Source: a virus. From it: DNA of 64,000 nt. The stretch is taken from the IMG/VR virus record IMGVR_UViG_3300031578_000009, positions 31,690 to 95,689 of that record. One strand, 5' to 3'. Positions within the stretch are counted from its first letter, which is position 1; each line of letters opens with the position of its first letter. Under the pieces are notes generated by a model. The model was not told the DNA's origin. It saw only the letters and a list, made by a program, of their open reading frames with translations, and ran no database searches. Positions 3,001-35,744 of the stretch are shown piece by piece. The position numbers were made by a program, and so were the translations under genes.

Positions 3001-6000
3001 TGAAGTAAATAATGGTAAAATTATTACTAAGGTTACAGAGTCAAATAGAAATGGTGCTAAAGATGTAATATTTAATAATTGGAATACTGAGTTTGTAAGT
3101 ACTGGTCATAAAAATGGATTCTTAATCAACAAAGACAATAAAGATACAGTAGTCAAAACTAAAGCCTCTAAAATAAATAATGACTTTGTAAATCTAAGAA
3201 AATTATCTGGAGAAGAATATATTAATGAATTATATTCTTTATTTAATAACATTGGAATAAAAGTGTCAAAAGATGCTTTAAAAGCTATTAAAGAAGATTT
3301 TAAGAACAAGAATAATAAAAAATACTTTAAACAAGAGTTTAAAGGTAAAGCATTAAATCAAGAAACATTTGAAGGATTTATAAATGCTTATTTTGGACCA
3401 ATGTTTAATAAGTTCAACAATGGTGAAAACATATTTGAAACAAACAAAGGAACTATTAAATCATTAGCAGTCTATGAACAAAAGTTTGATGTAGATGCAT
3501 CTTCTCAGTCATTTAGAAGTGCAAATGGTAATATGTATTATGCCTATGTTAATACACATCATTTGAGCAATACAATTGATAAAATCAACTCAAATGATAC
3601 AGATTTTTTTAATGAGAAATTAAACAATCCATTCTCATCTAAATCAACTTGGATTAATAATTCAGACGCTGTTAAGTTAGCTTATATTGATGTATCAAAA
3701 AGTACTCAAAAAGGTAGCACTGCTAAATCATATGAAGACCAAAATAATTTTGAAAAAGAAGTTACAAAAGTAAGTTTCTTTTTAAATAATGGTAATGTAG
3801 ATAGAACAATGATGTTAACTGTTTCTCCATCTGATAAAACAACGTTTTCATTATTAGATTCACAAAGAACCAGAGTAAATAATGGTTCATATTTAAATGA
3901 GAAACTTACATTAGATAGCAATTTAGAGAAGCAATTGTTTGATTTATTTGTAACTTCTGAAATTAACAGGATTAATCAAACTGTTGATGATTTCAATAAA
4001 ACTGAAGACAAAAATAAACTAATAGAAGGTTATCATTATCAAGGTAATCGCGTGGGAGCAGGTGGATATTTCTTCTTTATACCAGAACTTAATGAAGTAT
4101 TAAAACGTAGTTCAGAAGGTAAAATAATAATGAATGAATCTAATTTATCTAAAGCTAAAGATATAATGCTTGGATTTTTAGAATCAGAAATTGGATCTAA
4201 AATTAAACAATGGGAGAATATTGGTTTACAAGATTTTGTAGATGATGAAGCATTTAAGCAATATGATAGCAAACTATCTGATTTGGCTACAAATTATGTA
4301 ATAAATAATGCATCATCTTATGCTAACCAGTTTATGATGGTTACTGGAGATCCAGCTTTATTTGCAAAAATAGATGGTAAATTTACAGGAGAATATTCAA
4401 ATTGGAAACCAGTAGTAGAAGCAAGTTTAGTAAATTTATTTAAACGTACATCTAAAGATATTGCTCCTGGAATAAAAGGTAAATTTGACAATCCTACATA
4501 TAAAACATTATTTATTGAAGAACCTAAAGAGAATTCATTATTAGGTAAAGAGATTAAAGCTTACAATAATATTAAACTTGCTGATGCTCAAGAATGGACA
4601 ACTCTTGAAGAGCATTTGAATGTTATGAAAGCTATTGGTAAGATAGATCAGAATGATTATGATAACATAATTTCTAATAAAGATAATCTAACTTATGAAC
4701 AAATATTGACTGTTATACAACCAATGAAACCTGTTCAGGTATTATCTCAAATGGATAATAATTTTAATGCAGAAACTCAATATTATATTAAAACATCATC
4801 ATTCCCGTTATTATCTCAATTAACTAAAGGATTTCCTGAATTAGATAAAATGAGGAAATTCATGGAAGATAATAAAATTGATAGAATTGCTCCAAAAACT
4901 GCTGTTAAATTAGGATTTCATAATGCAATAAATTTATTTAATGAAGATTCATTTAATGATAATAATGGTTTTAACGGTACTGTTCTTACTTTAAATAGAG
5001 AAGGATTTAGTATTCAACAGGATGTTCCATATGATGAAAATAAATCTGAGATATTAGAAGGTTCTCAAATGAGAAAAACTATATTTGCTGATTTAACTCC
5101 AGATATGGAATTTTCTATGGGTAATGCTGTTGAACTAAAGAAGTTATCAGATGCTATACACATAGAACAGTATCAGAGAAAGTTAGAAGAACTTAAAACA
5201 AAACTTAAAGTAGAATCTGATGGTATCATTCAAAATATGAATGAGCTTAAAGACATGATGATTAAAGAAGGTCTTGATAGAGGTTATTCTATTAATGATT
5301 TGTTAGCATTAACAACTAAAAAATTATCTAATGGAAGATCTGTATTTAATATACCATTATTTTTTCATCCTATGGTTCATAAGATTGAATCATTATTGAA
5401 TTCTATTGTAAAAAATAAGATACTTAAAAACAAACTACCAGGTAAATCATTCGTACAAGGTTCATCATTGGGATTTAAAGTGGCAACTGAAGATTTTCTA
5501 AAGAGAGTTGCTGGTGATAATAATGGAATTATTTTAACTAAAGATTATAAAGGAAGTTTAGATTATAGAGAAGAAAATGGTGAATTATATGCTGAAATAT
5601 TCTTACCATCTATATTTAAAGACATAGATTTAACTCAATATATTGGCAAGGATGGATTATTAGATACAAATAAAATAGATCCAGAATTATTAAATATGAT
5701 TGGATATAGGATTCCAACTCAGGGATTTAGTTCAATTATTAGATTAAAAGTAGTTGGAATATTGCCAAAAGTTTCAGGAGATTTAGTTATAGTTCCACCA
5801 GCAATGGTTACTCAAATGGGTAGTGACTTTGATGTTGACAAACTATATGTTCATAATTATAATTATTATAAAGATTCCAATACAGATAAGATTAAAAAGA
5901 TTAAGCATAAAAATACTGCTGAATCAAATCTACTCCAAAAAATGGGTAATTTAAGTGATTTATCCATGTATTCTGATGAAGAATTACAAAATCATTTATT

Positions 6001-8827: not shown

Positions 8828-8828
8828 T

Positions 8829-9320
8829 ATGAAAGAATTTTTAAGTCAAGAAGCAATTAAAGAGCTTAATTACAGGATAAATCAAGAAGAATTTTCTGCT
8901 CGTATCTATGAAGGTATGAACTTATGGTTTGACGATAGAGGATATAAGAATTTTGCAGCTTTATATACTAAATATGCAGAAGAAGAATGGAAACATTCTA
9001 AGCTAGCTAAAGAATTTCTATTGTCGTTCAAAATTAAACCAGAATTACAATCTATAGAAGCTCCACCAGCAAATTATGAAAGCTGTTATGAGATATTAGA
9101 ATCTACATTAGAACATGAAGCAGAAGTTTCAAGGCAATGTCAGGAATTAGCTATTAACTCCTTAAAACGTGGAGAAATAATGTTGCATACATTGGCTCTA
9201 CAATATTGCAAGGAACAAATAGAGGAGATGGATAAATCATATACAATCCTGGATATCAGTAAATTAACAACAGATATGTTGGTTTTGGATCAATATATAG
9301 GTGAAACATATTTAGATTAA
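8829..9320 (+). CDS. ftn: Ferritin (FtnA-like)
   Basis: 163 aa helical protein with ferroxidase-type motifs INQEEFS, EEEWKH, EHE and EQIEE. Confidence 0.8.
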   Translation: MKEFLSQEAIKELNYRINQEEFSARIYEGMNLWFDDRGYKNFAALYTKYAEEEWKHSKLAKEFLLSFKIKPELQSIEAPPANYESCYEILESTLEHEAEVSRQCQELAINSLKRGEIMLHTLALQYCKEQIEEMDKSYTILDISKLTTDMLVLDQYIGETYLD

Positions 9321-9321
9321 T

Positions 9322-12300
9322 ATGAGTATTATATGCCCCCATAAGGGATTAAAAAAATGGTCTGACTTAGTGGCTTTACATGGTGAAGCTAAGAGTTATT
9401 TTTTGTGGAATGAATTTGAAGGTAAGGTTCCTAAAGAATTTTACTCAGAAAATAGTAATGTTCAAGTCTCAGATAAAGACTTAGAGCCATACTACAAATA
9501 TTCTCCACAAGAACCTAAAGTTCCATTAATTCAAAAAGTTCCTAAAGTTAATTTCAATAGTAAGTTTGCTGCCGGAACAAAACTTGTTGAAAGACAAGCT
9601 GGTGAAATTAATGCTAAATATGATGAGATGTTACCACCTAATTCTATTAAAAGACAAGTGGCTAACAAATTCTTTAGATATGCTAAATATGATAAAGATG
9701 GCAATAATTCACCAGTATATTATCCATTTAAAGTATCTGATTCATGGGAGAAAAATAAACAATATAAAGATGCTATTAATAAACTATATAGTGAAGATGT
9801 AGTTGGTGTTGATAATGATGGAAGTATTGTATTCAGACCTAATATTGAAAATGCTATATATACTGGTGGAGATTTTGGATATGCAGTAGAACCTGTTGAT
9901 ACAGATGTAGGAACAATTGAATCACCAGATACTAAGGCAATAGATACTGCTATTGAACGTTTAAATGAGAGACTAGCATTATTAACAAGGAGAGCATCAA
10001 AAACTGGTGGATCTTCACAAATGAGAGCTAATATTGCTGATTTAAAGAGTCAGATTAAAAAGCTTGAAGAAAATAAGACTACTTTAGCATCTAATAATAT
10101 TTTAGAAAGGTTTGCTAAAAATGATGCTGTACAAATACAAGATAATCTTGATAATATCAGAGAAAATGTTGATACTATCTTAAAAGCAGATCTAAGAGAA
10201 GAAAAAACAAAGCAACAAATGTTAGCTCTCATGGATAGTTTAATGCTTAATTCTATTACTATTCAAGGATGGATAGACATTCAGGATTTTGTAGAGCATA
10301 GTGATCCAGAATTAATCAATGAATTAGAAAAAATATCTGGTCATTATTCAAGATTAAATAGAGAGTGGAATGATTTAGCTAAAACACTATTTACAGAGTA
10401 TGCAAACAGATATTCTTATAGAGATAATTTCTCTAAAGATGAGTTATTTGATGCAGTAAAAGATACTAGTATTTATAAGTCTAATGTACTAGGATTAAGT
10501 GAATCTCATATTGAATTATTAAAAGTTGTAGATGATATCATTAGAAAATCAGCAAGTGATATTAATGAAGAATCGTTTGATAAAAAATCAGAAGTAAGAG
10601 AGTGGAACAAAAAACTTAAAGAGGATGGATTTTCAGAATCAGAAGTTAATGATATATTTAAACAAAAACATAATGGAGATTGGACTGGTAATATCATTGG
10701 TGATATAGATCATTCATACTATGTAAAAAAACAAGAATTATTTGATGAAGCAAATAGAACTGGTAAGTATGCTAGAGTAAATAAATGGTTAAAAGATAAC
10801 TCTAAATCTTTAAACTTAAAACAACTAAGAGATATTAAAGAAGGAAATTTTGAATCCAGTAAAAATATAGGTTATTCTCAGGAAGAATTAGATATTCAAA
10901 AAGAATTATTAGAGAAATACCAAGAAGACCATGATACTTATCAGGAAATAACTGAGATGAAATATGGTAATTCAGAATTTGCTCAAAGAGAATTAGAAGA
11001 ATGGGAGTTGGCACATTCTCCATTTTTGTATGCACAAGGAGAAAAAAATTCTGGATATAAATATTTAATTAAAGAAAAACCTAGTATTAATAAATGGGGA
11101 GATAGAAGGTTTGATAAAATTAAGAATAATCCAACTCTATTTGGATTCTATAATTTTATGAAACAAAGATTTAATGAAAATAATAAAGCTTTAGGTTATT
11201 TTAATGCATTTGAGGAGTTTTATATGCCTGAGAAAGAATCTAATTTTGCAAAACAATTAATGCAGAATAAAGGTCTTTTAAAGAAAGTTGGATTTCTTGG
11301 TAATAGTATAAAGAATTCTATATCACAAAGTGCTAGTGAAACATTTCCAGCTATTCATATAAAAGGAAAACCAGTTAAGTCTGTGCCAATTAGAATGATG
11401 CAGAATAGAATTCCACCTCAGATAAAAGAAGATCATTTATTAAATATAATTAATTTACATACTGAAAATTCATTAGCACATAAATATAAGACAGAGATTG
11501 AACCAATGTGCAATGCTGCTACTGAATTATTAAATACTATTAAAGAATTAAAACCTGGTGACAAAGAGATTGAGAATCAGCTTGCAAATGCTAAAAAACA
11601 ATTAGAATATGCTAAAGATGCAGGATTATATGATGAAAGAAAATCCAGGATAGAAGGTAAAACAGGAGTTAAATTCTATACTGATGAAGAAAAACAAAAA
11701 TTAGCTGAACTAAAACAACAAAGATCTAATAAAAAGATAACTGAAGAAACATTTAACCAAGAAAAAGATAAACTTGGTAAAATGATTACAGGCAATAAAT
11801 TAGTTGATTCATTAATTAATTATACCTATATAAAAGCAATGTCATTTCCAAACGTTATTACTCCTGGGGTGAACGTACTTTTTGGTATTAATTCAAACTT
11901 AATTTATGCATCTGCTGGAGTTGATGTTGACTTAAAAACTATGAATAAAGCAATGATTCAAATGATGTCAGCTACAGCAAGAAGTTTTGGTGCCAAAAAT
12001 AATCCAGAGTTAGTTGAGAAAGTTTATGCTTTTATGGAAAAATTACATTTATTAGGAACTATCCATGACAATGAATATGGTAGTAGAAAGTCTTTTTCAG
12101 AAAAGTTAACTATATTACAAGAGAAAGCAGAACATTTTAATCAAGGATCATTGATGTTAGCTATTCTACAATATCAAAAACTTCTTGATAAAAATGGTAA
12201 AGAAGTATCTATTTTTGATGCATATAAAGTACAAGATGAAAAACTTGTATGGAATGAAGAATTAATGGGAAAACAAACAAATACTCCAAATTCAAGAGTT

Positions 12301-13071
12301 ATTTCTGAAGATAAACATGGAGTTAATCTGTTTGGATTAACTAAATATATTGATAGAATTAATGCAACTGTACATGGTGATTATAAGTCTCCAATGATGG
12401 CAAAAAAGAATGCTGCTTTAAGAATGTTAATGTTATTTAAGACATGGTTACCTAAAGCTATTGATCATAGATTTGGAACACAAAGATTAGATAAAGATTT
12501 AATCAATAAAGAAGGATTTTTTGGTAGAGACGTAAAAGGTAGATATTTATCGTTTTGGAATTCTACTACTATGGATGCACAGGAAGTTCTATTTAAAGAT
12601 ACATTAGGAATGATTTTAAAGAGCTTTGTTTCTAAAAAGGCATTTGATAAACTCTCTGATATAGATCGTGTAAATATGATGCGTAATATGCGTGAAATTA
12701 AACATTTGATCGCTATCTATGGTGGATTATTAATGATGAGAGGTTTGCTAATGGATGATGATGATGATAATAAGCCTATATTAAATATTACGCTCAATAT
12801 GCTATCTAAAACTGGTCAAGATATGAGCTTCTTTTTGTCTCCAAACTCAATGAGTCAAATGGTAGATAATATTATCCCAGTATATTCTACAGTTAGAGAT
12901 GGCCAAAGAGCAATAAATAATGCATTTGGATTATTAACTGGAGATGTATTTTATCAAAATGGTCCTTGGAAAGATTCTCCAAAATTAGCAGTTAATACAT
13001 TTAGAATGATACCAGGTTCTTCAGGAGCAATTAAGATGTGGAATATGGGTAATAAGTTTTATCAATATTAA
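9322..13071 (+). CDS. Large virion-associated/ejected cargo protein
   Basis: 1249 aa, largely helical, last gene of the vRNAP block as in other crAss-like phages. No catalytic motif recognised. Confidence 0.6.
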   Translation: MSIICPHKGLKKWSDLVALHGEAKSYFLWNEFEGKVPKEFYSENSNVQVSDKDLEPYYKYSPQEPKVPLIQKVPKVNFNSKFAAGTKLVERQAGEINAKYDEMLPPNSIKRQVANKFFRYAKYDKDGNNSPVYYPFKVSDSWEKNKQYKDAINKLYSEDVVGVDNDGSIVFRPNIENAIYTGGDFGYAVEPVDTDVGTIESPDTKAIDTAIERLNERLALLTRRASKTGGSSQMRANIADLKSQIKKLEENKTTLASNNILERFAKNDAVQIQDNLDNIRENVDTILKADLREEKTKQQMLALMDSLMLNSITIQGWIDIQDFVEHSDPELINELEKISGHYSRLNREWNDLAKTLFTEYANRYSYRDNFSKDELFDAVKDTSIYKSNVLGLSESHIELLKVVDDIIRKSASDINEESFDKKSEVREWNKKLKEDGFSESEVNDIFKQKHNGDWTGNIIGDIDHSYYVKKQELFDEANRTGKYARVNKWLKDNSKSLNLKQLRDIKEGNFESSKNIGYSQEELDIQKELLEKYQEDHDTYQEITEMKYGNSEFAQRELEEWELAHSPFLYAQGEKNSGYKYLIKEKPSINKWGDRRFDKIKNNPTLFGFYNFMKQRFNENNKALGYFNAFEEFYMPEKESNFAKQLMQNKGLLKKVGFLGNSIKNSISQSASETFPAIHIKGKPVKSVPIRMMQNRIPPQIKEDHLLNIINLHTENSLAHKYKTEIEPMCNAATELLNTIKELKPGDKEIENQLANAKKQLEYAKDAGLYDERKSRIEGKTGVKFYTDEEKQKLAELKQQRSNKKITEETFNQEKDKLGKMITGNKLVDSLINYTYIKAMSFPNVITPGVNVLFGINSNLIYASAGVDVDLKTMNKAMIQMMSATARSFGAKNNPELVEKVYAFMEKLHLLGTIHDNEYGSRKSFSEKLTILQEKAEHFNQGSLMLAILQYQKLLDKNGKEVSIFDAYKVQDEKLVWNEELMGKQTNTPNSRVISEDKHGVNLFGLTKYIDRINATVHGDYKSPMMAKKNAALRMLMLFKTWLPKAIDHRFGTQRLDKDLINKEGFFGRDVKGRYLSFWNSTTMDAQEVLFKDTLGMILKSFVSKKAFDKLSDIDRVNMMRNMREIKHLIAIYGGLLMMRGLLMDDDDDNKPILNITLNMLSKTGQDMSFFLSPNSMSQMVDNIIPVYSTVRDGQRAINNAFGLLTGDVFYQNGPWKDSPKLAVNTFRMIPGSSGAIKMWNMGNKFYQY

Positions 13072-13103
13072 TGCCTAACTAGAAAAATTTTTATTGGCAA
13101 TAT

Positions 13104-13135
13104 AAAAGAGGAGAATTAATTCTCCTCTTTTTTTT
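13104..13135. terminator. Bidirectional intrinsic terminator at the convergence of + and - blocks
   Basis: Perfect palindrome aaaagaggagaat-ta-attctcctctttt with T/A tails on both sides, between convergent genes. Confidence 0.85.
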
Positions 13136-13137
13136 GT

Positions 13138-14259
13138 TTAATCAAATTTTAATAGAAAATCTGGATTGATAGCTTTAAATGATGAAATCTTTTTTCCATC
13201 TTCTATACATCTAAAAACTATTCCTTCTCTCGGAATATTTGCTAATGTAGATTTTCCTTTAGTAAGATTAATAATTTTATCAACAGTATCTCCAAGATAT
13301 TCTAATCTATCCATGCCTAAAAATGGAACAATATTTAAATTATATTTTTTACAAAACATATTCATTTCATGATAATCATAATGATATCCCTTTTCATGAT
13401 CTATAATATTAAATACCCACATAGTAGGTTCTGTAACACCATATTTATTTCCTTGAACTTTAGTATCACCTTGTTCTCCTTGAATTGTTAAGGTAGGATT
13501 TTCTTTAAGTATTTGTTCTAAATTGTATTTCTTGGCAATTTTCCAATACAGAGAATTTTTATCATTTGTAGTTAAATTTCTACTACATACAACAAATTGA
13601 TATTTCTTAAATGGTAATTTACTTAGTATTCCATTAAATCTTGGAACCATTTTACCTGTCCATGTACCTGATTGATAGTCTATTTTTTCAGTTATATAGA
13701 ATATTTTATCTTTATATTGTTTTAATACTTGTGGAATATTTTGTATTCTTTCTTCATCTGTTTTAGAAACCCAATAAGGAAATCCAGATTTACCTTTCTT
13801 GCTTAAAAACAATCTTCTAAAGAGACTATATCTCAATAAGAATTTCTTTAACTTGGACTTCTCTAACTTAATTTTATTTTCTAATTGTTCAATTTCAGTT
13901 CTTTCAGAAGGAGATAGGTATTTAGTTATCCCCATCCACTCAGTTACGTCTTGATGTTCCCCAAATTTACCAGAATCTACTGAAAGGTAAGAGGTAGGTA
14001 GCACAAGACCCATTGAAATTTGCCCACGAAGTTTAATGGTTCTTATTCTAAATTTTCTTTCTCTAAGGAATTCAAATTCAGGTTTTTCTGGCATTACGGA
14101 ATCAACTTCGCAATAAACTACCTTATCTCCAACTTTAAAATTATCTTTTTTAGCAATTACACATTGCCAACCAAGTATTCCACATAATTCAATTTTATCT
14201 GCACCATCAATAGGCTTTATCCACTCTATTTTTTCTATATGAGCAAGTTTCCTGTCCAT
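13138..14259 (-). CDS. RNA ligase, DRB0094/Rnl2-like, with N-terminal OB (tRNA-binding-like) domain
   Basis: N-terminal RKLAHIEKI..PIDGADKIE. Motifs KTDEERIQN, TEKID (motif I), IQGE, REGIV and SFKAIN. Confidence 0.85.
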   Translation of the reverse strand: MDRKLAHIEKIEWIKPIDGADKIELCGILGWQCVIAKKDNFKVGDKVVYCEVDSVMPEKPEFEFLRERKFRIRTIKLRGQISMGLVLPTSYLSVDSGKFGEHQDVTEWMGITKYLSPSERTEIEQLENKIKLEKSKLKKFLLRYSLFRRLFLSKKGKSGFPYWVSKTDEERIQNIPQVLKQYKDKIFYITEKIDYQSGTWTGKMVPRFNGILSKLPFKKYQFVVCSRNLTTNDKNSLYWKIAKKYNLEQILKENPTLTIQGEQGDTKVQGNKYGVTEPTMWVFNIIDHEKGYHYDYHEMNMFCKKYNLNIVPFLGMDRLEYLGDTVDKIINLTKGKSTLANIPREGIVFRCIEDGKKISSFKAINPDFLLKFD

Positions 14260-14263
14260 TTAT

Positions 14264-14488
14264 TTACAATTTATAATTTTTATTAATGTATCCATAATAT
14301 GTTAAGTATCCAATTAACCAATAAATATTGTAATCATCACTAGAAATAAAATCTCCATCATTAGTAACAATATCATAACAATATCCGGTTAATGTAATAT
14401 TACAATGTTTGTTTATAAATGTATTTGAATCATGTGGATCTTTCTTAAATCCATTATTAATTAGAAAATTAACTACCGTTTCCATCAC
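14264..14488 (-). CDS. Hypothetical protein
   Basis: ORF tightly packed in the - strand operon. Confidence 0.6.
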   Translation of the reverse strand: MMETVVNFLINNGFKKDPHDSNTFINKHCNITLTGYCYDIVTNDGDFISSDDYNIYWLIGYLTYYGYINKNYKL

Positions 14489-14717
14489 TTAATTCTTCTA
14501 ATATAATAAATTCATCTAACCATTTATAAAATTCACCAGCCTTAACATCTACCCAATCTATAACTTCCATTAAATCTCCAGAAATTAAATCAATACTTTC
14601 TATCTTAACTACTGGTTCATTATCTGGTAAATCATAATTATTTGATGATGATTGTGGAGTATAAATATATGTAACTCCAATTACACTTTCTCCTAGATTT
14701 ATATTTCTGTATTTCAT
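14469..14717 (-). CDS. Hypothetical protein
   Basis: ORF tightly packed in the - strand operon. Confidence 0.6.
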   Translation of the reverse strand: MKYRNINLGESVIGVTYIYTPQSSSNNYDLPDNEPVVKIESIDLISGDLMEVIDWVDVKAGEFYKWLDEFIILEELSDGNGS

Positions 14718-14721
14718 AACA

Positions 14722-14973
14722 TTAATTATTAATTAATACACTTTTATTTGTAACCCATCCGCCAATAGCATTTGATGTGTCTCCGTCACCTATATGTTTT
14801 TCATATTCAAAGAAAGTATGTGTTTCATTTTCCCAATAAATACACTTGCATATAGGGCAAATTTCAACGTCAATTACTTCAAGTGGACTATCTATATCAA
14901 ACTGATATTGATAGTCCTTATTTGGCTCTAATATAACTTCATTTTGACAATTTTTACATTTCACTAGACTCAT
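14722..14973 (-). CDS. Zn-ribbon protein
   Basis: CKNC...CPIC motif. Confidence 0.6.
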   Translation of the reverse strand: MSLVKCKNCQNEVILEPNKDYQYQFDIDSPLEVIDVEICPICKCIYWENETHTFFEYEKHIGDGDTSNAIGGWVTNKSVLINN

Positions 14974-15297
14974 TTATTGTTCTAATTTAAATCTATCATC
15001 TAATTCTGGTCTTGTTTCTAACACAAATGCTGCTACCAACAAATTCCATGCAGCATGATATAAATGATTTATTTTACTTTCATCATCAAAATCAGATAAT
15101 CTTGGATCTTCAAATGCATCCATATGTCTATCATGTGAATCTAAATACTGGGTAATTGGTGCGCCTTTTAAAAAATTGTATGTTGCATATTTACCTTCTC
15201 CATAATGTGCAACTTTAGCAATCCCTCTAAATAAAAATTTAGGAAAATTATGCCATCTCAACTTACCTTCATTAAATCTTTCTGCTAATTCACTCAT
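14974..15297 (-). CDS. dATP/dGTP diphosphohydrolase-like (DUF5664) protein
   Basis: RFNEGKLRW, YGEGKY..NF.KG, D.ESK.NHL.HAAWN pattern. Confidence 0.8.
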   Translation of the reverse strand: MSELAERFNEGKLRWHNFPKFLFRGIAKVAHYGEGKYATYNFLKGAPITQYLDSHDRHMDAFEDPRLSDFDDESKINHLYHAAWNLLVAAFVLETRPELDDRFKLEQ

Positions 15298-15652
15298 AAT
15301 ATTTTAAATCATAATATTTTAAATACTTAACTGGTATATTATTTTCTTCTGCAATCCTTAATTCAGATTGACAACCTTTACTATTTTTAATTAGTTCCAT
15401 GCCACTTTCTCCAATAATTACTACAATAACCTCGTTACATCTTTTAAGTAATTCAGAATCTTGTTTCATCCAAAAATCATGATCTGTTTGTAATCTATCA
15501 TGCATATATTCAGATATTGGATGAGAATGACTTATTGGACTAAATACGATGTTTCCTTTTAACATTAATTCAGAAGCAACTCTATTAGCTATTTTAAATG
15601 AACGTTCTGGATGCCAACTATAAGGAATACATAAGTATATGATTTTACTCAT
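15290..15652 (-). CDS. DUF1937 / nucleoside-deoxyribosyltransferase-like protein
   Basis: IYLCIPYS, VFSPISHSHP, W..QD, SKGCQSE..A pattern. Confidence 0.75.
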   Translation of the reverse strand: MSKIIYLCIPYSWHPERSFKIANRVASELMLKGNIVFSPISHSHPISEYMHDRLQTDHDFWMKQDSELLKRCNEVIVVIIGESGMELIKNSKGCQSELRIAEENNIPVKYLKYYDLKYYE

Positions 15653-15718
15653 TATTTATTTGTTTTAAATAGTCTTCAAATGACTTAAATTTATATTCAG
15701 TTATTTATTACTTTTTTT

Positions 15719-16057
15719 TCATAACATTTTAATTATTAATAATTTATCTTCTTCACTTGTATCAATATCTTCTGATTGTAGTAGAGATATAAAAGATTCT
15801 TTTGTACTTCTAAAGGATAAATTATTGTTATTATAATTCTTAAAAACACATCTTAAATGTTCTCCTTTATTGTTAAAATCATTTCCAACTAATTCAATAA
15901 ATTCTACTAAATCTTCATCTGTTAATTCAGAGAGTTTTCCTAAGATTTTATAATCTTTGTCTTTATATCCAAATAATATTAATGCTCTTTTAGTAAAAGG
16001 TCCTGGATTTTCTATTATAATTAAATCATTAGATTGTGTTTTTATTTTAGTTGTCAT
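15719..16057 (-). CDS. Hypothetical protein
   Basis: ORF in the operon. Confidence 0.6.
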   Translation of the reverse strand: MTTKIKTQSNDLIIIENPGPFTKRALILFGYKDKDYKILGKLSELTDEDLVEFIELVGNDFNNKGEHLRCVFKNYNNNNLSFRSTKESFISLLQSEDIDTSEEDKLLIIKML

Positions 16058-29744: not shown

Positions 29745-31051
29745 TTTATATGACGGAGCGTAAAACCAACTCATTACGAAGTGTGGGTTGGATGTAAGCG
29801 ACTCCTTTACACTCACATTTTGACATTTTGTTTGTTTTGTATAAATTGGCATAATTTTTGTAATATATAAACTATGTTTAAATCGTTCAAATACAGAATT
29901 TACCCAACCGAGCCACAAAAAGAGCTTATTGCCAAACATATTGGTAGTAGTCGTTTTGTGTTTAATCTTGCGTTGGAAACTAAAAACGCTGCATATATTG
30001 GTAACAAACATAACTACAGCCCTTTCGATTTAATTAAACAATTACCAGAACTTAAAAAAGAATGTCCTTGGCTAAAAGAAGTAAACTCACAAAGCTTACA
30101 ACAATCTATACAAAATATGGATATTGCTTTTAAGAAATTCTTTAAAGGAGCTGGTTTTCCAAAATTTAAGTCTAAAAGAGATAGACAATCTTTTTCAATA
30201 CCACAAAATGTAATAGTTGAAAATAATCTTTTGATAATACCAAAGTTTAAAGAGGGTATTAAAATATTTTTACATAAACCTACACAAGGTATTGTAAAAA
30301 GTGGAACTATCAGTGTAACACCTACAGGTAAATACTTCGTGTCAATACTTTGTGATACTAAAGAAGATATGCCAATTAAGGTTTCTATTAATGAAAACAC
30401 CACAATAGGTATTGACCTTGGAATAAAAGACTTTGCCATTACCTCAGATGGAGAGGTATTTGATAATCCTAAATTTCTTCGTAAAGCACAAAGTAAATTA
30501 AAATATGTACAACGTAAATACTCAAAACACAAAGGCAAGCGAACTAAAAAGAAACTTGCCAAATTACATGAAGATGTAGTAAACAAACGCAAAGATTTTT
30601 TACACAAAGTTTCAACTAAATTAATTCGTGAGAACCAAACGATAGCCCTTGAAACTTTAGCGGTTAAAAATATGGTTAAAAACCACAATTTAGCACAAGC
30701 AATTAATGATGTAAGTTGGTCAACTTTTGTTTCTATGTTGGAATATAAAGCTGGTTGGTATGGTAAAAATATCCTACGAATAGGACAATTTGCACCATCT
30801 TCAAAAACTTGTTCAAACTGTGGGGCTATCAACAATGAACTACAACTAAAAGACCGTGAATGGACTTGTGGCAGTTGTTCTACTGTTTTAGACCGAGATG
30901 TTAATGCTGCTTGTAACATAAAATCATTTGCTTTAAAAAATATTTTGTCTGGGGAACACAGACTTAAAAGTCAAGACGAACTGCCTACATTAGTAGGAGT
31001 AATGACTCTTGAAGCCAAACCCATCGCCTTTGGCGTGGGTGGGTAGTTCAC
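29745..31051 (+). mobile_element. IS200/IS605-family (IS1341-type, TnpB-only) element
   Basis: Left-end hairpin ccaactca...gtgggttgg (~29766-29791). Right-end hairpin acccatcgcc-ttt-ggcgtgggt ending GTAGTTCAC (31051). Inserted against the operon direction. Left boundary is approximate: TTTAT at 29734 or 29745. Confidence 0.8.
29874..31046 (+). CDS. tnpB: RNA-guided endonuclease TnpB
   Basis: KYRIYPT, RFVFN, RuvC D (GIDLG), E (ALETL), D (DRDVNAA) and Zn ribbon CSNC/CGSC, all intact. Confidence 0.95.
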   Translation: MFKSFKYRIYPTEPQKELIAKHIGSSRFVFNLALETKNAAYIGNKHNYSPFDLIKQLPELKKECPWLKEVNSQSLQQSIQNMDIAFKKFFKGAGFPKFKSKRDRQSFSIPQNVIVENNLLIIPKFKEGIKIFLHKPTQGIVKSGTISVTPTGKYFVSILCDTKEDMPIKVSINENTTIGIDLGIKDFAITSDGEVFDNPKFLRKAQSKLKYVQRKYSKHKGKRTKKKLAKLHEDVVNKRKDFLHKVSTKLIRENQTIALETLAVKNMVKNHNLAQAINDVSWSTFVSMLEYKAGWYGKNILRIGQFAPSSKTCSNCGAINNELQLKDREWTCGSCSTVLDRDVNAACNIKSFALKNILSGEHRLKSQDELPTLVGVMTLEAKPIAFGVGG

Positions 31052-31673: not shown

Positions 31674-31983
31674 GTTTTACATATATATCAGAATCATCCT
31701 CTTTCTTAAATAATTTTACAAATTTATGTACATCTGAAGATCCAACATCTTGCAATTTTTCTGGGAATTCTTTTTTAAATGTATCTACCTATTTATTATG
31801 ACCAATTATTGATAATTCTTTAGTGTCATATAATTCCACTATAATCCAATTCCCATTATTATATTCTTTACTACATATTCCTGTTTCATATGGTTGATCG
31901 GAATCTGTTACTAATGCAGTATCAATTGTTACTCCATTAATTACATCATTTGCAACAACTCTATCTTTATAAGTTCCCATCAT
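31666..31983 (-). pseudogene. Hypothetical gene interrupted by an in-frame TAG at 31789-31791
   Basis: Frame continues 40 codons after the stop (GHNK*VDTFKKEFPEKLQDV...) and ends overlapping the next start codon. Confidence 0.55.
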
Positions 31984-32053
31984 TTCTAATTATGTCGTTG
32001 TAAATCATAGTAATAATGTTATTTATTACACATTAATGATGTTTATACAATAG

Positions 32054-32209
32054 TTATGTGGCATTAGGCTTCGGTGTATTTATTTCACGCACCATTTCCA
32101 TAATCTTTTCCATAACCTTTGGCACATACTTTTCACTACAAGTTGTTTCTAACCTAATTCCTGCACGTAATAATGGTGCTTCTACTGTAATTTTATATTT
32201 ATTGTTCAT
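32054..32209 (-). CDS. Cassette 1 ORF (51 aa, not in the ORF track)
   Basis: MNNKYKITVEAPLLRAGIRLETTCSEKYVPKVMEKIMEMVREINTPKPNAT. The stop codon is the complement of the GTTA core. Confidence 0.65.
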   Translation of the reverse strand: MNNKYKITVEAPLLRAGIRLETTCSEKYVPKVMEKIMEMVREINTPKPNAT

Positions 32210-32222
32210 AATTAATAACGCC

Positions 32223-32351
32223 ACATAACAATTTATAAAAAATAATAGCAGGTTATGTGGTACTTGTTAGCTGCTACCGCTGTATTTAAGTTTGTAATTA
32301 TTTCAAAGTGTCAGTTTCAAAGCTGCTACTATTCTTATAATAACGTTAGCG
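32223..32351 (+). other. attC1
   Basis: ACATAAC-aat-ttataaaaaataatagcag...ctgctactattcttataa-taac-GTTAGCG. Confidence 0.85.
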
Positions 32352-32561
32352 TTAATTGCTTTTAAACTTTGCGTACAATATTTCGTTGTAATGTCTATTA
32401 CATTCGTACTGATACACAAATTCACTATTATTTTTACACCACATAACGAAATCTATTGCTTCTTTTTGTAGCAACATATCGCTAACACCAGATAAAAACA
32501 ATTGCTTGTTGTATTCATCTATTGTGGTTTGTGCTTTTTTATAATCGTCTTCTGTTATCAT
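32352..32561 (-). CDS. Cassette 2 ORF
   Basis: 69 aa. Start codon lies inside the attC2 loop. Confidence 0.65.
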   Translation of the reverse strand: MITEDDYKKAQTTIDEYNKQLFLSGVSDMLLQKEAIDFVMWCKNNSEFVYQYECNRHYNEILYAKFKSN

Positions 32562-32609
32562 AATTTTGTTTATTAAATTCGCAACTGTGTTTATCTGTAA
32601 TCGTTATAC
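32480..32609 (+). other. attC2
   Basis: CGCTAAC-ac-cagataaaaacaattgc...gcaactgtgtttatctg-taatc-GTTATAC. Confidence 0.85.
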
Positions 32610-32846
32610 GCAAGCTAAAGAACCGAGCAACGTTTCAACCCATGCGTTTGAATCGGCACATCTTTTGAGTTCTTCTTTGTGCGTTTTTGCACAGTCGGTG
32701 CATACTGGTTGGTTTGTTCTCCAATGCCAAGTATTGGTAGGTTGCTTGCAAAAGTAGCAGCGTTCGTACACACCTGTATTTTCGTACATATCTTTAGTCT
32801 CTTTTACTGTTGGTATCATGATATCAAAATTAACGGGCGGTAACAA
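32604..32846 (-). CDS. Cassette 3 ORF, Zn-finger (CYFC...CTDC)
   Basis: Stop lies in the GTTA core. The true start is probably an internal Met. Confidence 0.6.
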   Translation of the reverse strand: MLPPVNFDIMIPTVKETKDMYENTGVYERCYFCKQPTNTWHWRTNQPVCTDCAKTHKEELKRCADSNAWVETLLGSLACV

Positions 32847-32965
32847 TGTATAAAAAACATAGCTGAGCCTGTGGTTAATATTAAGTTTCTATTTCAATTT
32901 TACATTTGTAAGTTATTGTTGTTCAGTATTTCAAAACGCTACGTTTCTTATACTCAACGTTATAG
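32838..32965 (+). other. attC3
   Basis: CGGTAAC-aat-gtataaaaaacatagc...gctacgtttcttatac-tcaac-GTTATAG. Confidence 0.85.
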
Positions 32966-33160
32966 GGCATTATTGCATTGGTCTAACGCATTTCTCATAT
33001 CCTCATCAGCAAGTTCTTTTAACTTATCAGCAATCATATATAAACCTTCTGGTCCATATTTATCTAACAATGCGTTAAAGTTAATTTCTTTATCAACGCA
33101 CTCTAACAAAGTATATAGTGCATTGCTGTCTTGTTTCAATTTATCATCTTCGTAAATCAT
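32960..33160 (-). CDS. Cassette 4 ORF
   Basis: Starts inside attC4 and stops in the GTTA core of attC3. Confidence 0.65.
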   Translation of the reverse strand: MIYEDDKLKQDSNALYTLLECVDKEINFNALLDKYGPEGLYMIADKLKELADEDMRNALDQCNNAL

Positions 33161-33220
33161 AATCTTTTGTATTTTAATTAATATTTGTGATGCAACGCAC
33201 CATATACTCAGCCGTTATGC
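33101..33220 (+). other. attC4
   Basis: CTCTAAC-aa-agtatatagtgcattgc...gcaacgcaccatatact-cagcc-GTTATGC. Confidence 0.85.
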
Positions 33221-33224
33221 GCAA

Positions 33225-33482
33225 TTATTCAGACGCTTCTTCCAAAAATGGATTGACATCTTCGCCAAGTTCTTTACTGCTATGCTTCATTAAAATTTTA
33301 ACAATATCCCCCTTGTTGATTCTTTTCAGGTTGTTAAATTCAGTGTATATTTCTTGGAGTATTACCTGAAATTCAGCATTGCAGTTGCGTATTCCAAATA
33401 AAATTCCATCATTATAACTGCCCATAACAGCACCTAAATCGCTATTGGCGGTTTCTTCTGTATTCAAATTTTCGTGTTCCAT
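33225..33482 (-). CDS. Cassette 5 ORF
   Basis: 85 aa. Starts inside attC5. Confidence 0.65.
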   Translation of the reverse strand: MEHENLNTEETANSDLGAVMGSYNDGILFGIRNCNAEFQVILQEIYTEFNNLKRINKGDIVKILMKHSSKELGEDVNPFLEEASE

Positions 33483-33553
33483 TGTTACTTTATTTTCATG
33501 TTGATAAATTGCGTTTCAAATCGCCAACAGCGTTTAGCTGCGGCACGTCATGG
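33422..33553 (+). other. attC5 (R' core mutated GTT>GTC)
   Basis: CCATAAC-agc-acctaaatcgctattggcg...cgccaacagcgtttagct-gcggcac-GTCATGG. Confidence 0.8.
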
Positions 33554-33588
33554 GCAAGTGTAAGAAATCCCACGCTCACCTGTTTAAA

Positions 33589-33759
33589 TTACTTGGTATC
33601 TGTGTATTTTACATCACCGTTTTCATCTATACTTCTTTCCACCCCATCCGAGTTCCTATCAACGATATTCCCCCACTCATCTTTTGATGTGTAAAAATCA
33701 GTATCTCTGCCGTAATATTCGGCTTCGGAAACAATGTTTCCCCATTCATCTTTTGGCAT
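33589..33759 (-). CDS. Cassette 6 ORF (56 aa, not in the ORF track) with duplicated KDEWGNIV motif
   Basis: MPKDEWGNIVSEAEYYGRDTDFYTSKDEWGNIVDRNSDGVERSIDENGDVKYTDTK. Confidence 0.65.
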   Translation of the reverse strand: MPKDEWGNIVSEAEYYGRDTDFYTSKDEWGNIVDRNSDGVERSIDENGDVKYTDTK

Positions 33760-33787
33760 ATTAAGCCCTCCTATTATAAACGCCAGC

Positions 33788-33915
33788 CCATAACACTAAA
33801 TATAAAATATACGGGTATTGTGCGTGTTTGAACGGTATTACCTTTAATCAAGTGTTGTGTATCGGGATAGGATACCGCTTTTAATCCCGTACATTTCATA
33901 TTTTTAACGTTATAC
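33788..33915 (+). other. attC6
   Basis: CCATAAC-act-aaatataaaatatacggg...cccgtacatttcatattt-ttaac-GTTATAC. Confidence 0.85.
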
Positions 33916-33921
33916 GCTATA

Positions 33922-34134
33922 CTAATTGACAATCGGATGTTCAATTACCTTATAACCCCAGTCAAGTAATATTTCTTTAACTACATACCATTCACCATTA
34001 AATTCCAGTGCATCAATCGTTGCTTGTGGTGCATCACTATGGAATATTACTTTTCTTTCGTTGATAGAATCATTGAAAGTACAGCGTATAACATCGTGTA
34101 TAGCACATTGCTTTTCGTTCTTCGCATTTTCCAT
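33922..34134 (-). CDS. Cassette 7 ORF
   Basis: 70 aa. Starts inside attC7. Confidence 0.65.
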   Translation of the reverse strand: MENAKNEKQCAIHDVIRCTFNDSINERKVIFHSDAPQATIDALEFNGEWYVVKEILLDWGYKVIEHPIVN

Positions 34135-34209
34135 TTTTAATATATTTTAAAGTTTGTAATTCTATTAAAGTTTTGTGTAAGCAATGTGCTATACACGTAT
34201 CCGTTAGGC
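34086..34209 (+). other. attC7
   Basis: GTATAAC-atc-gtgtatagcacattgctt...aagcaatgtgctatacac-gtatcc-GTTAGGC (perfect 18-bp arms). Confidence 0.9.
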
Positions 34210-34215
34210 GTAATG

Positions 34216-34428
34216 CTAAGAAAGCATCCACTTTAAAGCTTCTACTTTACCGTTGGCAATATTCATTCTATTTTGAACTTTGTCTCCATATTCAATACTT
34301 GCCATTTGGCTCATGTTACATAGTTCTTTGTTAAGTTTTTCAGCCAATAACTCTTGGTCTTTAATTTCAATCTTTATTTCTCTTTCTGTTTTCATAACAA
34401 TTTGAATTAAAGCACATACGCCTAACAA
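34216..34428 (-). CDS. Cassette 8 ORF
   Basis: Likely start at the internal MKTERE. C-terminal KVEALKWML. Confidence 0.6.
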   Translation of the reverse strand: MLGVCALIQIVMKTEREIKIEIKDQELLAEKLNKELCNMSQMASIEYGDKVQNRMNIANGKVEALKWMLS

Positions 34429-34549
34429 TATGTATAGTTAATGGCGGTTTTGTGCGTGGTTTAACATTTATTTTACCTTTTTATTTTTGTTTAGTTTGAT
34501 AGTTTTGTGGTCTTAAATCCGCCACGACACCTTACATTCAACGTTACCA
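34420..34549 (+). other. attC8
   Basis: GCCTAAC-aat-atgtatagttaatggcgg...ccgccacgacaccttacat-tcaac-GTTACCA. Confidence 0.85.
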
Positions 34550-34554
34550 CCCAT

Positions 34555-34884
34555 TTAAAGAGGGCGGTGCAAGTCTATGTTTATTGTAATGTAATGGAAA
34601 AAAGTTATCGTTATATAAGCATATCCTTTCATAAAGGAACGCCTGTAATTTATTAACGATACTTCTTTGTATTTACCACGTTTTTCTTCATCCTGTACAG
34701 GTGTCCTACGTTTTATCTTATAATACCATAAATACCAATCTACGCTGCTTTGTGTTTTCTCGAAATAGAATAAACGGGTGGTAACAATAGATAAAATCCA
34801 TTGCTTAAATTGTGTTAATTTATTGGTTTTCTGTTTCATATCAATATTATTTTTAGTTTGAAAATTTGTAATTCTAAATCGCAA
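34555..34884 (-). CDS. Cassette 9 ORF
   Basis: Probable start MKQKT at 34839, inside attC9. Confidence 0.6.
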   Translation of the reverse strand: MRFRITNFQTKNNIDMKQKTNKLTQFKQWILSIVTTRLFYFEKTQSSVDWYLWYYKIKRRTPVQDEEKRGKYKEVSLINYRRSFMKGYAYITITFFHYITINIDLHRPL

Positions 34885-34908
34885 CGTATCTTATCTGAGC
34901 CGTTAGCG
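34779..34908 (+). other. attC9
   Basis: TGGTAAC-aat-agataaaatccattgc...gcaacgtatcttatct-gagcc-GTTAGCG. Confidence 0.85.
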
Positions 34909-35094
34909 TTCATTTGCCAACGCACTCTTACGCACAATCGGAACTACTTTATACATAAAAGTTGCTCCACCTTGTTGCTGTATAAAATCATAACATTCTT
35001 GCTCTGTTCCTTCAAAGCATTCTTGTCCTTCGTCTGGTGTATAAACCAAATCTAATACTTGATGTGTTGCTTCCATTTTATTTAAGTTTTGCAC
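34903..35094 (-). CDS. Cassette 10 ORF
   Basis: Stop lies in the GTTA core. FEGTEQECYDF motif. Confidence 0.65.
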   Translation of the reverse strand: MQNLNKMEATHQVLDLVYTPDEGQECFEGTEQECYDFIQQQGGATFMYKVVPIVRKSALANER

Positions 35095-35114
35095 CGCCCA
35101 CGCTCAAAACGAAA

Positions 35115-35215
35115 CGCTAACAAGCGGTATAGTTAATAAAGGCTGAATTAAGTTTTATTCTTTGATTGGTCGGTAGTGGTCAGCCTTTACTAAACCATAC
35201 CGCCAGCCGTTATAA
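35115..35215 (+). other. attC10
   Basis: CGCTAAC-aag-cggtatagttaataaaggctga...tcagcctttactaaaccataccg-ccagcc-GTTATAA. Confidence 0.85.
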
Positions 35216-35428
35216 ACAAGGCGTAAGCAACGCCCATTTTGTACCGTCTATAAGGTCAGTATATCGCCCGTAAATCAACACTTCTTTCTTTGCAAGTTGT
35301 TCAGGTGGTGGATAAATTAATATTTCATCACCGTAGTTGGGTTTATCTTCTGGGAAAAACGCCCAGTTTATAACAAGCGGTAATACGGCATTGCCTTCCG
35401 CTTCATTGATACTTTTTTCTGTGTTCAT
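35210..35428 (-). CDS. Cassette 11 ORF
   Basis: Starts inside attC11 and stops in the GTTA core of attC10. Confidence 0.65.
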   Translation of the reverse strand: MNTEKSINEAEGNAVLPLVINWAFFPEDKPNYGDEILIYPPPEQLAKKEVLIYGRYTDLIDGTKWALLTPCL

Positions 35429-35501
35429 AGTTTTGTCCTCGTATTTAAGTTATTACTAATTTGATAAATCGGCAACGACCGCATACCGCCAGCCGTTAGC
35501 A
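35368..35501 (+). other. attC11
   Basis: TTATAAC-aag-cggtaatacggcattgcc...ggcaacgaccgcataccg-ccagcc-GTTAGCA. Confidence 0.85.
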
Positions 35502-35507
35502 CCAATA

Positions 35508-35744
35508 TTAAGGAAGTAACTCGCATTCATGAACTTCCCACCATTGATCATAATCAAATGGATATTCTTTTGCAGGAGGATATTCTTTGCATTCATTTTC
35601 CCACTCTTTTAGTTTTTCAGCCTTGTGAAATTCCATAGCCATTTCAGCACCTTTCTTTGTTTTGTGAATACTTATAGTAGTTGCTGCACTATCATGACAA
35701 TCTGAATTATAAAGAAACTCATATACAAATTCTAGTTTTTCCAT
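35508..35744 (-). CDS. Hypothetical protein (position of a 12th cassette lacking its own attC)
   Basis: Follows the R' of attC11. No matching GGTGCTAAC hairpin seen to its right. Confidence 0.65.
   Translation of the reverse strand: MEKLEFVYEFLYNSDCHDSAATTISIHKTKKGAEMAMEFHKAEKLKEWENECKEYPPAKEYPFDYDQWWEVHECELLP

Follow-up and report, generated by a model that had tools for sequence, protein, structure and literature searches.

A probable integron-like array of mobile gene cassettes, without a recombinase gene, in a complete phage genome

The window analyzed here is a stretch of 64,000 nucleotides (positions 31,690 to 95,689) from the IMG/VR record IMGVR_UViG_3300031578_000009, a virus record of 95,689 bp that is complete, has direct terminal repeats and encodes a large terminase subunit. 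Between window positions 32053 and 35498 it carries eleven imperfect palindromes, each paired with one small open reading frame (ORF). The analysis makes it quite probable that this region is an integron-like array of mobile cassettes, part of a system shared by phages and Bacteroidota and present here without its recombinase. The evidence consisted of the anatomy of the array, the strand-specific structure of its sites, the exact breakpoints of a cassette found in other genomes, and the recombinase genes that stand beside related arrays.

Array anatomy and strand-specific hairpins

The palindromes read TAAC...GTTA on the plus strand and measured 95-128 bp, or 101-134 bp when 3 nt of flank were counted on each side. 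The distance from one GTT to the next was 255-362 bp across the array units, each of which contained one minus-strand ORF of 51-94 aa. The TAAC/GTTA ends were present in 10 of the 11 sites, with site s5 ending in GTCA. All eleven ORFs were located on the strand that folds, with the hairpin lying 5' of the start codon or around it; in six of them the start codon was inside the hairpin loop. A first-pass annotation of this DNA had described eleven sites of 101-134 bp, units of 255-362 bp with one ORF apiece and a region richer in CG than its surroundings. All of the sites were recovered in place with agreeing sizes, spacing and ORFs, and the GC content was 32-35% at 32-36 kb vs about 24-30% over most of the window.

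The eleven sites were aligned on the ORF-sense strand (alignment A1) and a covariance model, R1, was built from them. The conserved order in A1 was TAACG at the 5' end, a bulge of 2-4 nt, a stem containing GTAT(A/G) and GTTGC, a variable loop, GCAAT, TATAC and finally TGTTA. The bulge was confined to the 5' arm, directly after TAACG, and the 3' arm was continuous. The sites were only 55% identical per alignment column, and a common structure of 23 pairs was paired in 91.5% of cells and included 12 compensatory pairs; none of 500 shuffles did as well, and slid controls paired in 32-52%. When R1 was run on the whole 95.7-kb genome, its matches were the eleven sites only.

The fold is specific to the ORF-sense (minus) strand. 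Three of the pairs were conserved G.U wobbles that become A.C mismatches if the other strand is folded, the arm-pairing score was 389 for the minus strand vs 273 for the plus strand, and the minus-strand folds were mostly the more stable. In a model-fitted alignment of 82 sites from 13 loci, 96.8% of cells were paired, 17 of the 23 pairs were compensatory, and G.U was observed at two pairs in 82/82 and 81/82 sites. The earlier concern that the bottom strands might not fold was examined in this way, and the minus strand was found to fold, with both wobbles and compensatory changes.

The sites also carried the pairing that is characteristic of cassettes. In 9 of the 11 units the bases that follow GTT (R') were the reverse complement of those that precede the next TAAC (R''). 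This complementarity was exact over 9-10 nt in cassettes c1, c7, c8, c9, c10 and c11 and over 7 nt in c2, reached 9/10 in c5 and c6, was weak in c4 (7/12) and failed in c3 (3/12). Cognate pairs agreed at 93 of 132 positions (12 nt each), a value matched by none of 20000 random re-pairings, and position 8 of the R'/R'' stem was a conserved wobble on the ORF-sense strand. The first-pass annotation had extended the rule to every GTT and had called cassettes 4, 5 and 6 near-exact; the former was accurate for nine cassettes and not for c3 and c4, and the latter for 5 and 6 and not for 4. The R' of c3 (window 32603) was identical to that of c7 (33909), GTTATACGC, and the R'' of c3 mismatched its own R', which suggests an earlier rearrangement or a chimeric cassette. 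In s5 the core triplet was mutated, reading GTC on the plus strand and GAC on the ORF-sense strand. Since the s5-type hairpins in contigs L185 and L188 keep the normal TAAC, the s5 junction of the window is probably dead.

Cassette exchange and the recombinase of related arrays

The cassette rule is strand-symmetric and hence silent on which unit moves, so the mobile unit had to be identified by comparison. Relatives of cassette 2 (94-96% amino acid identity) were found in contigs L007, L018, L019 and L020, with different neighbours in each. L007 is a 67.9-kb phage contig with an estimated completeness of 99%, and apart from cassette 2 none of the four contigs has a gene in common with the present phage. 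In all four the identity begins right after TAA/C, upstream of the hairpin, and stops at CGCTAA/C, where the slash marks the crossover point; TAA/C on the ORF-sense strand corresponds to G/TT on the plus strand of the window. The cassette is therefore the hairpin plus the ORF on the ORF-sense strand, and the six ORF starts within hairpin loops are compatible only with such a hairpin-plus-ORF unit. These comparisons support an array of mobile cassettes that would be exchanged at G/TT on the plus strand. Exchange at G/TT had been predicted in the first-pass annotation, and cassette 2, in five contexts, breaks exactly there.

Cassette homologues were additionally found on a 95,566-bp sister contig and on contigs of 289 kb and 51 kb. 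Cassette 2 had no relative among GTDB species genomes, searches with the flanking genes returned relatives that were 33% identical at best or none, and an exact search for the attI-side junction gave no match. Shorter sites (46-62 nt) whose ends match those of the full-length sites were observed at L007:5213-5258 and L019:10207-10268, and the one in L007 may be the landing site of its single cassette 2.

A different kind of recurrence was observed for the hairpins themselves. The c5 hairpin encodes a start codon and a 19-aa leader, MEHENLNTEETANSDLGAV, at window positions 33425-33482, and the last codon of this leader is the GTT of R'. In viral contigs L185-L191 this hairpin and leader are continued in frame by six unrelated ORF bodies, each of which keeps its own R'/R'' pair. 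Likewise, a near-identical c6 hairpin was joined to a different ORF at L020:10207-10343. The recurring c5 and c6 hairpins were about 90% identical to their counterparts, and the identity broke off at the ORF-sense 3' GTT. Just past the right end of the array, the minus-strand gene at 35508-35744 has homologues that are cassettes elsewhere; the one at L087:9586-9804 lies entirely within the loop of a hairpin of ~290 nt, and the one in L189 is fused to a c5-type leader.

The genome showed no tyrosine recombinase, serine recombinase or Y1 transposase (no match to PF00589, PF00239 or PF01797), and a degenerate integrase remnant, sought throughout it by tblastn with the L019-type enzyme, left no trace. 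The first-pass description of an integrase-less phage was upheld by both searches. Related arrays, by comparison, do carry an enzyme. In L019, R1 placed about 45 sites in the interval 2061-15814, every one of them on the ORF strand, and a 266-aa tyrosine recombinase (PF00589, PF13495) is encoded directly after this array. The enzyme scored 173 bits against NF040815 (XerA / 'integron integrase'; cut-off 220) and 152 bits against TIGR02249 (integron integrase; cut-off 265), reaching neither cut-off. It was collinear with the Pyrococcus XerA-like protein 4a8e. In alignments with integron integrases it had 31 residues opposite 79 in IntI4 and 71 gap positions against IntI1, and the phage enzyme therefore lacks the IntI-specific additional domain, which is the defining feature of integron integrases (10.1101/2022.02.06.479319; PMC8138268). 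The two cassettes closest to the recombinase gene of L019 are an exact tandem duplicate (L019:15315-15905), which looks like a fresh duplication or a re-insertion at an attI-like site.

The L019-type recombinase had 216 relatives in IMG/VR viral contigs, of which 80 loci with 61-79% identity were examined. R1 gave 358 matches on these 80 loci, seen in at least 52 of them; among the 300 matches listed, all were on the recombinase strand and nearly all were upstream of the gene. Two of the carriers are complete jumbo phages of 310 kb and 362 kb with terminase genes. The 310-kb phage (G003, the record of L067) has two site clusters, at 170787-172765 and 184286-187106, and the second alone adjoins the recombinase gene. 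In a quick tree, 26 phage enzymes were placed on one side of a branch (approximate likelihood-ratio test support 92), with 21 cellular relatives apart. The integrase of Polaribacter phages Freya_1 to Freya_10 (44.0-48.9 kb) was 39% identical to the phage-type enzyme, and its start ranges from position 83 to position 4180; these phages may have a variable region upstream of the integrase, and one weak R1 match was found at the start of the Freya_10 record (L182, 1-129).

A conserved junction accompanies the phage recombinases: in 70 of 78 phage loci, TAAC followed by TATTATATAT stands about 50 nt before the recombinase ATG. The left edge of the window array, at 32031-32056 on the minus strand, consists of the final TAA/C followed by TATTGTATAAACA and was the second-best match to a position weight matrix of this motif in the whole window, with a score of 10.4 vs a training median of 26. 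Behind it, where the recombinase gene sits elsewhere, there is no integrase gene; an unrelated 64-aa ORF occupies this position. The array therefore keeps the attI-like platform site and not the enzyme.

Relatives of the system were also found in bacteria. The closest recombinase relatives in GTDB were 40-50% identical and mostly from Bacteroidota, and weaker R1 matches were located beside these genes, on the opposite strand and downstream. The bacterial arrays, exemplified by L160 (Flavobacteriaceae bacterium S0862), L108 and L175, contain ORFs of 180-500 aa on the top strand with a site after each one, the polarity of canonical cassettes. Bacterial and phage sites had a common motif, YAACG..GTATR..GTTGCG...GCAAT..TATAC..TGTTR. 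The bacterial enzymes, at 376-384 aa, carry an N-terminal extension, score above the NF040815 cut-off and likewise lack the additional domain. Because the structured strand has the sense of the genes in phages but is antisense to them in bacteria, its role should lie at the level of DNA rather than of mRNA, and this argues for a structure that would serve DNA recombination. The loops are otherwise variable, and one loop motif, CACAAA..TTATCAA, just 3' of GTTGCG.ATT, was common to the phage sites and the sites of L108, L175 and L162; it may serve as a binding site or as an element resembling a promoter.

Individual cassettes, cargo and surroundings

All cassettes and their ORFs lie on the minus strand. 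Cassette c1 (32054-32345) holds an ORF of 51 aa at 32054-32209 and site s1 at 32226-32348, with an R'/R'' pair exact over 10 nt and an R1 score of 96.6 bits. It is followed by c2 (32346-32603), with a 69-aa ORF at 32352-32561 that starts in the loop of s2 (32483-32606), and by c3 (32604-32959), whose ORF (32604-32846) is accompanied by an intact site s3 at 32841-32962 (108.9 bits with R1) despite the failing R'/R'' pair. In c4 (32960-33214) the 66-aa ORF at 32960-33160 again starts in the loop, here that of s4 (33104-33217), and c5 (33215-33547) combines an 85-aa ORF at 33225-33482 with the core-mutated site s5 at 33425-33550. The ORF of c6 (33548-33909) encodes 56 aa at 33589-33759, with s6 at 33791-33912 and R'/R'' agreement at 9/12 positions. 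Cassette c7 (33910-34203) contains a 70-aa ORF at 33922-34134 with its start in the loop, and its site s7 (34089-34206) has a perfect stem of 19 bp and R'/R'' agreement of 11/12.

The remaining cassettes are c8 (34204-34543), with its ORF at 34216-34428, s8 at 34423-34546 and 10 exact nucleotides of R'/R''; c9 (34544-34902), with an ORF at 34555-34839/34884 that starts in the loop, s9 at 34782-34905 and an R'/R'' pair exact over 10 nt and agreeing at 11/12 overall; and c10 (34903-35209), with its ORF at 34903-35094 and the short hairpin s10 at 35118-35212 (9 nt exact; 57.3 bits with R1). The array ends with c11 (35210-35495), where a 72-aa ORF at 35210-35428 starts in the loop of s11 (35371-35498; 9 nt of R'/R'' exact; 80.4 bits with R1) and the right end of the array reads G/TTAGCACC.

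None of the cassette proteins matched a Pfam or PADLOC family, and the sole PHROG match among them was a weak one of the c8 protein to phrog_12106. The cargo would consist of small accessory proteins. The c3 protein (32604-32846) shows a CxxC...CxxC zinc-ribbon-like pattern, and the c6 protein (33589-33759) has the motif KDEWGNIV twice, both without a family match. The array lies inside a long minus-strand block of replication genes that includes a DnaB-like helicase, further helicases and an AAA protein, and Rfam returned nothing in the window except two tRNAs. For this phage, the array would represent 3.4 kb of foreign, higher-GC, exchangeable cargo.

Proposed mechanism, alternative explanations and known systems

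In the mechanism that we propose, a cassette on the ORF-sense strand would consist of C, the 5' arm, the loop (often with the start codon), the 3' arm, GTT with R', the remainder of the ORF, R'' and TAA. The ORF-sense strand would fold as single-stranded DNA, and a small Xer-like tyrosine recombinase would cut between A and C of TAA/C, with another hairpin or the attI-like TAAC followed by TATTATATAT as the exchange partner. In an excised circle, R'' would pair with R' and lengthen the stem by 10-12 bp. Since the genome encodes no such enzyme, the array should change only with a recombinase supplied in trans, by a co-infecting phage or by a host, presumably of the Bacteroidota, with a related chromosomal system; the alternative that dispenses with an enzyme in trans is an array that became frozen recently. 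The first-pass annotation had favoured an integrase supplied in trans, probably by the host, and had taken IntI to be the cognate enzyme. The lack of a recombinase in the phage agrees with supply in trans. The sites of this family, however, adjoin a phage-borne Xer-like recombinase of 265-266 aa without the IntI additional domain, which speaks against IntI and makes a co-infecting phage at least as likely a donor as the host.

Several observations weigh against an array that works as proposed. The R'/R'' rule is broken in c3 and c4, so the array may be partly decaying, and the mutated core of s5 may likewise be a sign of decay without an enzyme. The presence of the same hairpin on different ORF bodies is not explained by a single TAA/C crossover; either the site is copied onto new bodies when cassettes are formed, or crossover can take place on each side of the hairpin. 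Additionally, the I2 or additional domain is held to be necessary for recombining single-stranded attC sites (PMC7790495), and a single-strand mechanism is not assured for recombinases that lack it. Recombination itself was read here from sequence comparison rather than observed directly.

Alternative explanations were weighed against the same evidence. It appears unlikely that the region is a classical CALIN (cluster of two or more attC sites lacking an integron integrase nearby) with ordinary attC sites whose cassettes are moved by a canonical IntI of the host. The R boxes have the canonical sequence AAC/GTT and are flanked by a G and a T, as in attC_aadA1 of plasmid R100, which shares TAACG...TGTTA with the phage sites on its bottom strand, and IntI1 can recombine published phage attC sites (PMC9892861). 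The only R1 match in the R100 integron region was indeed attC_aadA1, on the bottom strand and with the right ends, but it was weak (6.7 bits, E = 3.3), and all recombinases found beside the site family, in phages and bacteria alike, were without the IntI additional domain. Moreover, the 2-4-nt bulge of the 5' arm replaces the canonical spacer and extrahelical bases, and the ORF polarity is reversed.

It is quite unlikely that the hairpins act chiefly as regulatory or RNA elements (terminators, processing signals or translation control of the start codons embedded in them) and that the genes between them were shuffled by homologous recombination among similar hairpins, as has been proposed for promoter-stem-loop cassettes in T4-type phages. 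In phages the mRNA has the sequence of the folded strand, 6 of 11 start codons lie in loops, and ~90%-identical hairpins are joined to different ORFs, all of which such an explanation would accommodate. Cassette-specific R'/R'' pairing and exact TAA/C breaks, however, are not expected of homologous exchange, and the eleven hairpins are only 55% identical per column. In bacteria the genes run opposite to the structured strand, and the arrays come with a dedicated tyrosine recombinase and a conserved attI-like site. A TnpB/IS605 OrfB gene at 29874-31046 on the plus strand (390 aa; PF01385, PF07282, PF12323), 1 kb left of the array and opposite in strand to all its neighbours, raised the further idea of IS200/IS605-like single-strand transposons served by this gene, a family that does use hairpins and short target motifs. 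This idea was scarcely credible and was rejected upon the lack of any PF01797 match (Y1 TnpA) in the genome: TnpB is a nuclease and not a transposase, each unit has one hairpin instead of two subterminal ones, and arrays elsewhere accompany a tyrosine recombinase and not TnpB. In a blastn search of 30.1-38 kb against cultured phages, the TnpB gene was the only match, together with a 79-nt stretch inside c5 in one uncultured phage.

Beyond the integron-like cassette array itself, we tentatively put forward a wider proposal that could well be true, and that could somewhat more easily be wrong. Phages ranging from 60 kb to 360-kb jumbo phages would run their own integron lineage, in which a minimal Xer-like recombinase without I2 acts on folded single-stranded hairpins, these hairpins also serve as portable translation starts whose start codon and leader peptide are grafted in frame onto new ORF bodies, and the window array is a client borrowing its enzyme from co-infecting phages. 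Integrons are regarded as bacterial (and archaeal), and their single-strand recombination is ascribed to a domain acquired by IntI and absent from Xer recombinases (PMC7790495, PMC4792948). The arrays described here show the same cassette logic in phages, with an enzyme that lacks this domain, reversed polarity, up to dozens of cassettes and cassettes common to unrelated phages. If the proposal were true, the origin of integron recombination and the genesis of cassettes, a problem of long standing, would be visible in these arrays. An active system would give Bacteroidota phages, including crAss-like and jumbo phages, a general route to swap small accessory genes, plausibly for counter-defence. 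It would also offer a natural test case for the evolution of hairpin recombination and, because the same hairpin and leader stand on six different ORF bodies, for how new cassettes arise. No published description of this site and recombinase family was found in the full-text literature, a search whose coverage excluded most subscription journals. The caution about novelty in the first-pass annotation was apt, as small phage attC clusters had already been published (PMC9892861).

Compared to known systems, the array resembles classical integrons in its tandem cassettes with one imperfect-palindrome site each, AAC/GTT cores, a G/TT crossover with cassette-specific R'/R'' pairing, strand-specific folding, an attI-like site by the recombinase gene in complete versions, and site families common to unrelated ORFs. 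The eleven sites fit the length of integron sites, about 57-141 bp with AAC...GTT cores; among these, the VCRs (Vibrio cholerae repeats) of sedentary chromosomal integrons in Vibrio are long, homogeneous attC sites of about 120-130 bp. The integron layout of a top-strand ORF with attC at its 3' side and Pc at the attI end, however, is not found here: the folded bottom strand carries the ORFs, each gene has its site at its 5' end, and start codons and leader peptides are encoded within the site. A bulge of the 5' arm also stands in place of the 5-6-nt spacer in both arms and the extrahelical bases of the 3' arm, a canonical layout that was checked on attC_aadA1. The recombinase of this family, at 265-266 aa, is without the additional (I2) domain, and the carriers are phages, the present one without a recombinase.

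CALINs of 2-3 classical attC sites have been described in virulent phages, including Polaribacter phage P12002L (Qi et al. 2023, PMC9892861). The present array shares with them a site cluster and a genome without an integrase, and one of those phages has a Bacteroidota host; the array differs in having 11 sites (about 45 in L019) of a family with its own phage-borne recombinase, and the CALIN of P12002L gave no R1 match. CTX-type IMEX (integrative mobile elements exploiting Xer) provide a second precedent, as Xer recombinases there act on a hairpin of single-stranded phage DNA. They have in common with this system an Xer-type tyrosine recombinase without the IntI domain and a hairpin of single-stranded DNA, but in their case the whole phage integrates at chromosomal dif, and there are neither cassette arrays nor an attI-like platform. 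The chromosomal arrays of Bacteroidota share the site motifs and a related recombinase of Xer/XerA type that lacks the additional domain, and differ in a recombinase of 376-384 aa located upstream of the array and in canonical ORF polarity. The recombinase gene is absent from the present array, which nevertheless has the site family, the attI-like junction and the ORF polarity of the Xer-like arrays found in phages and Bacteroidota.

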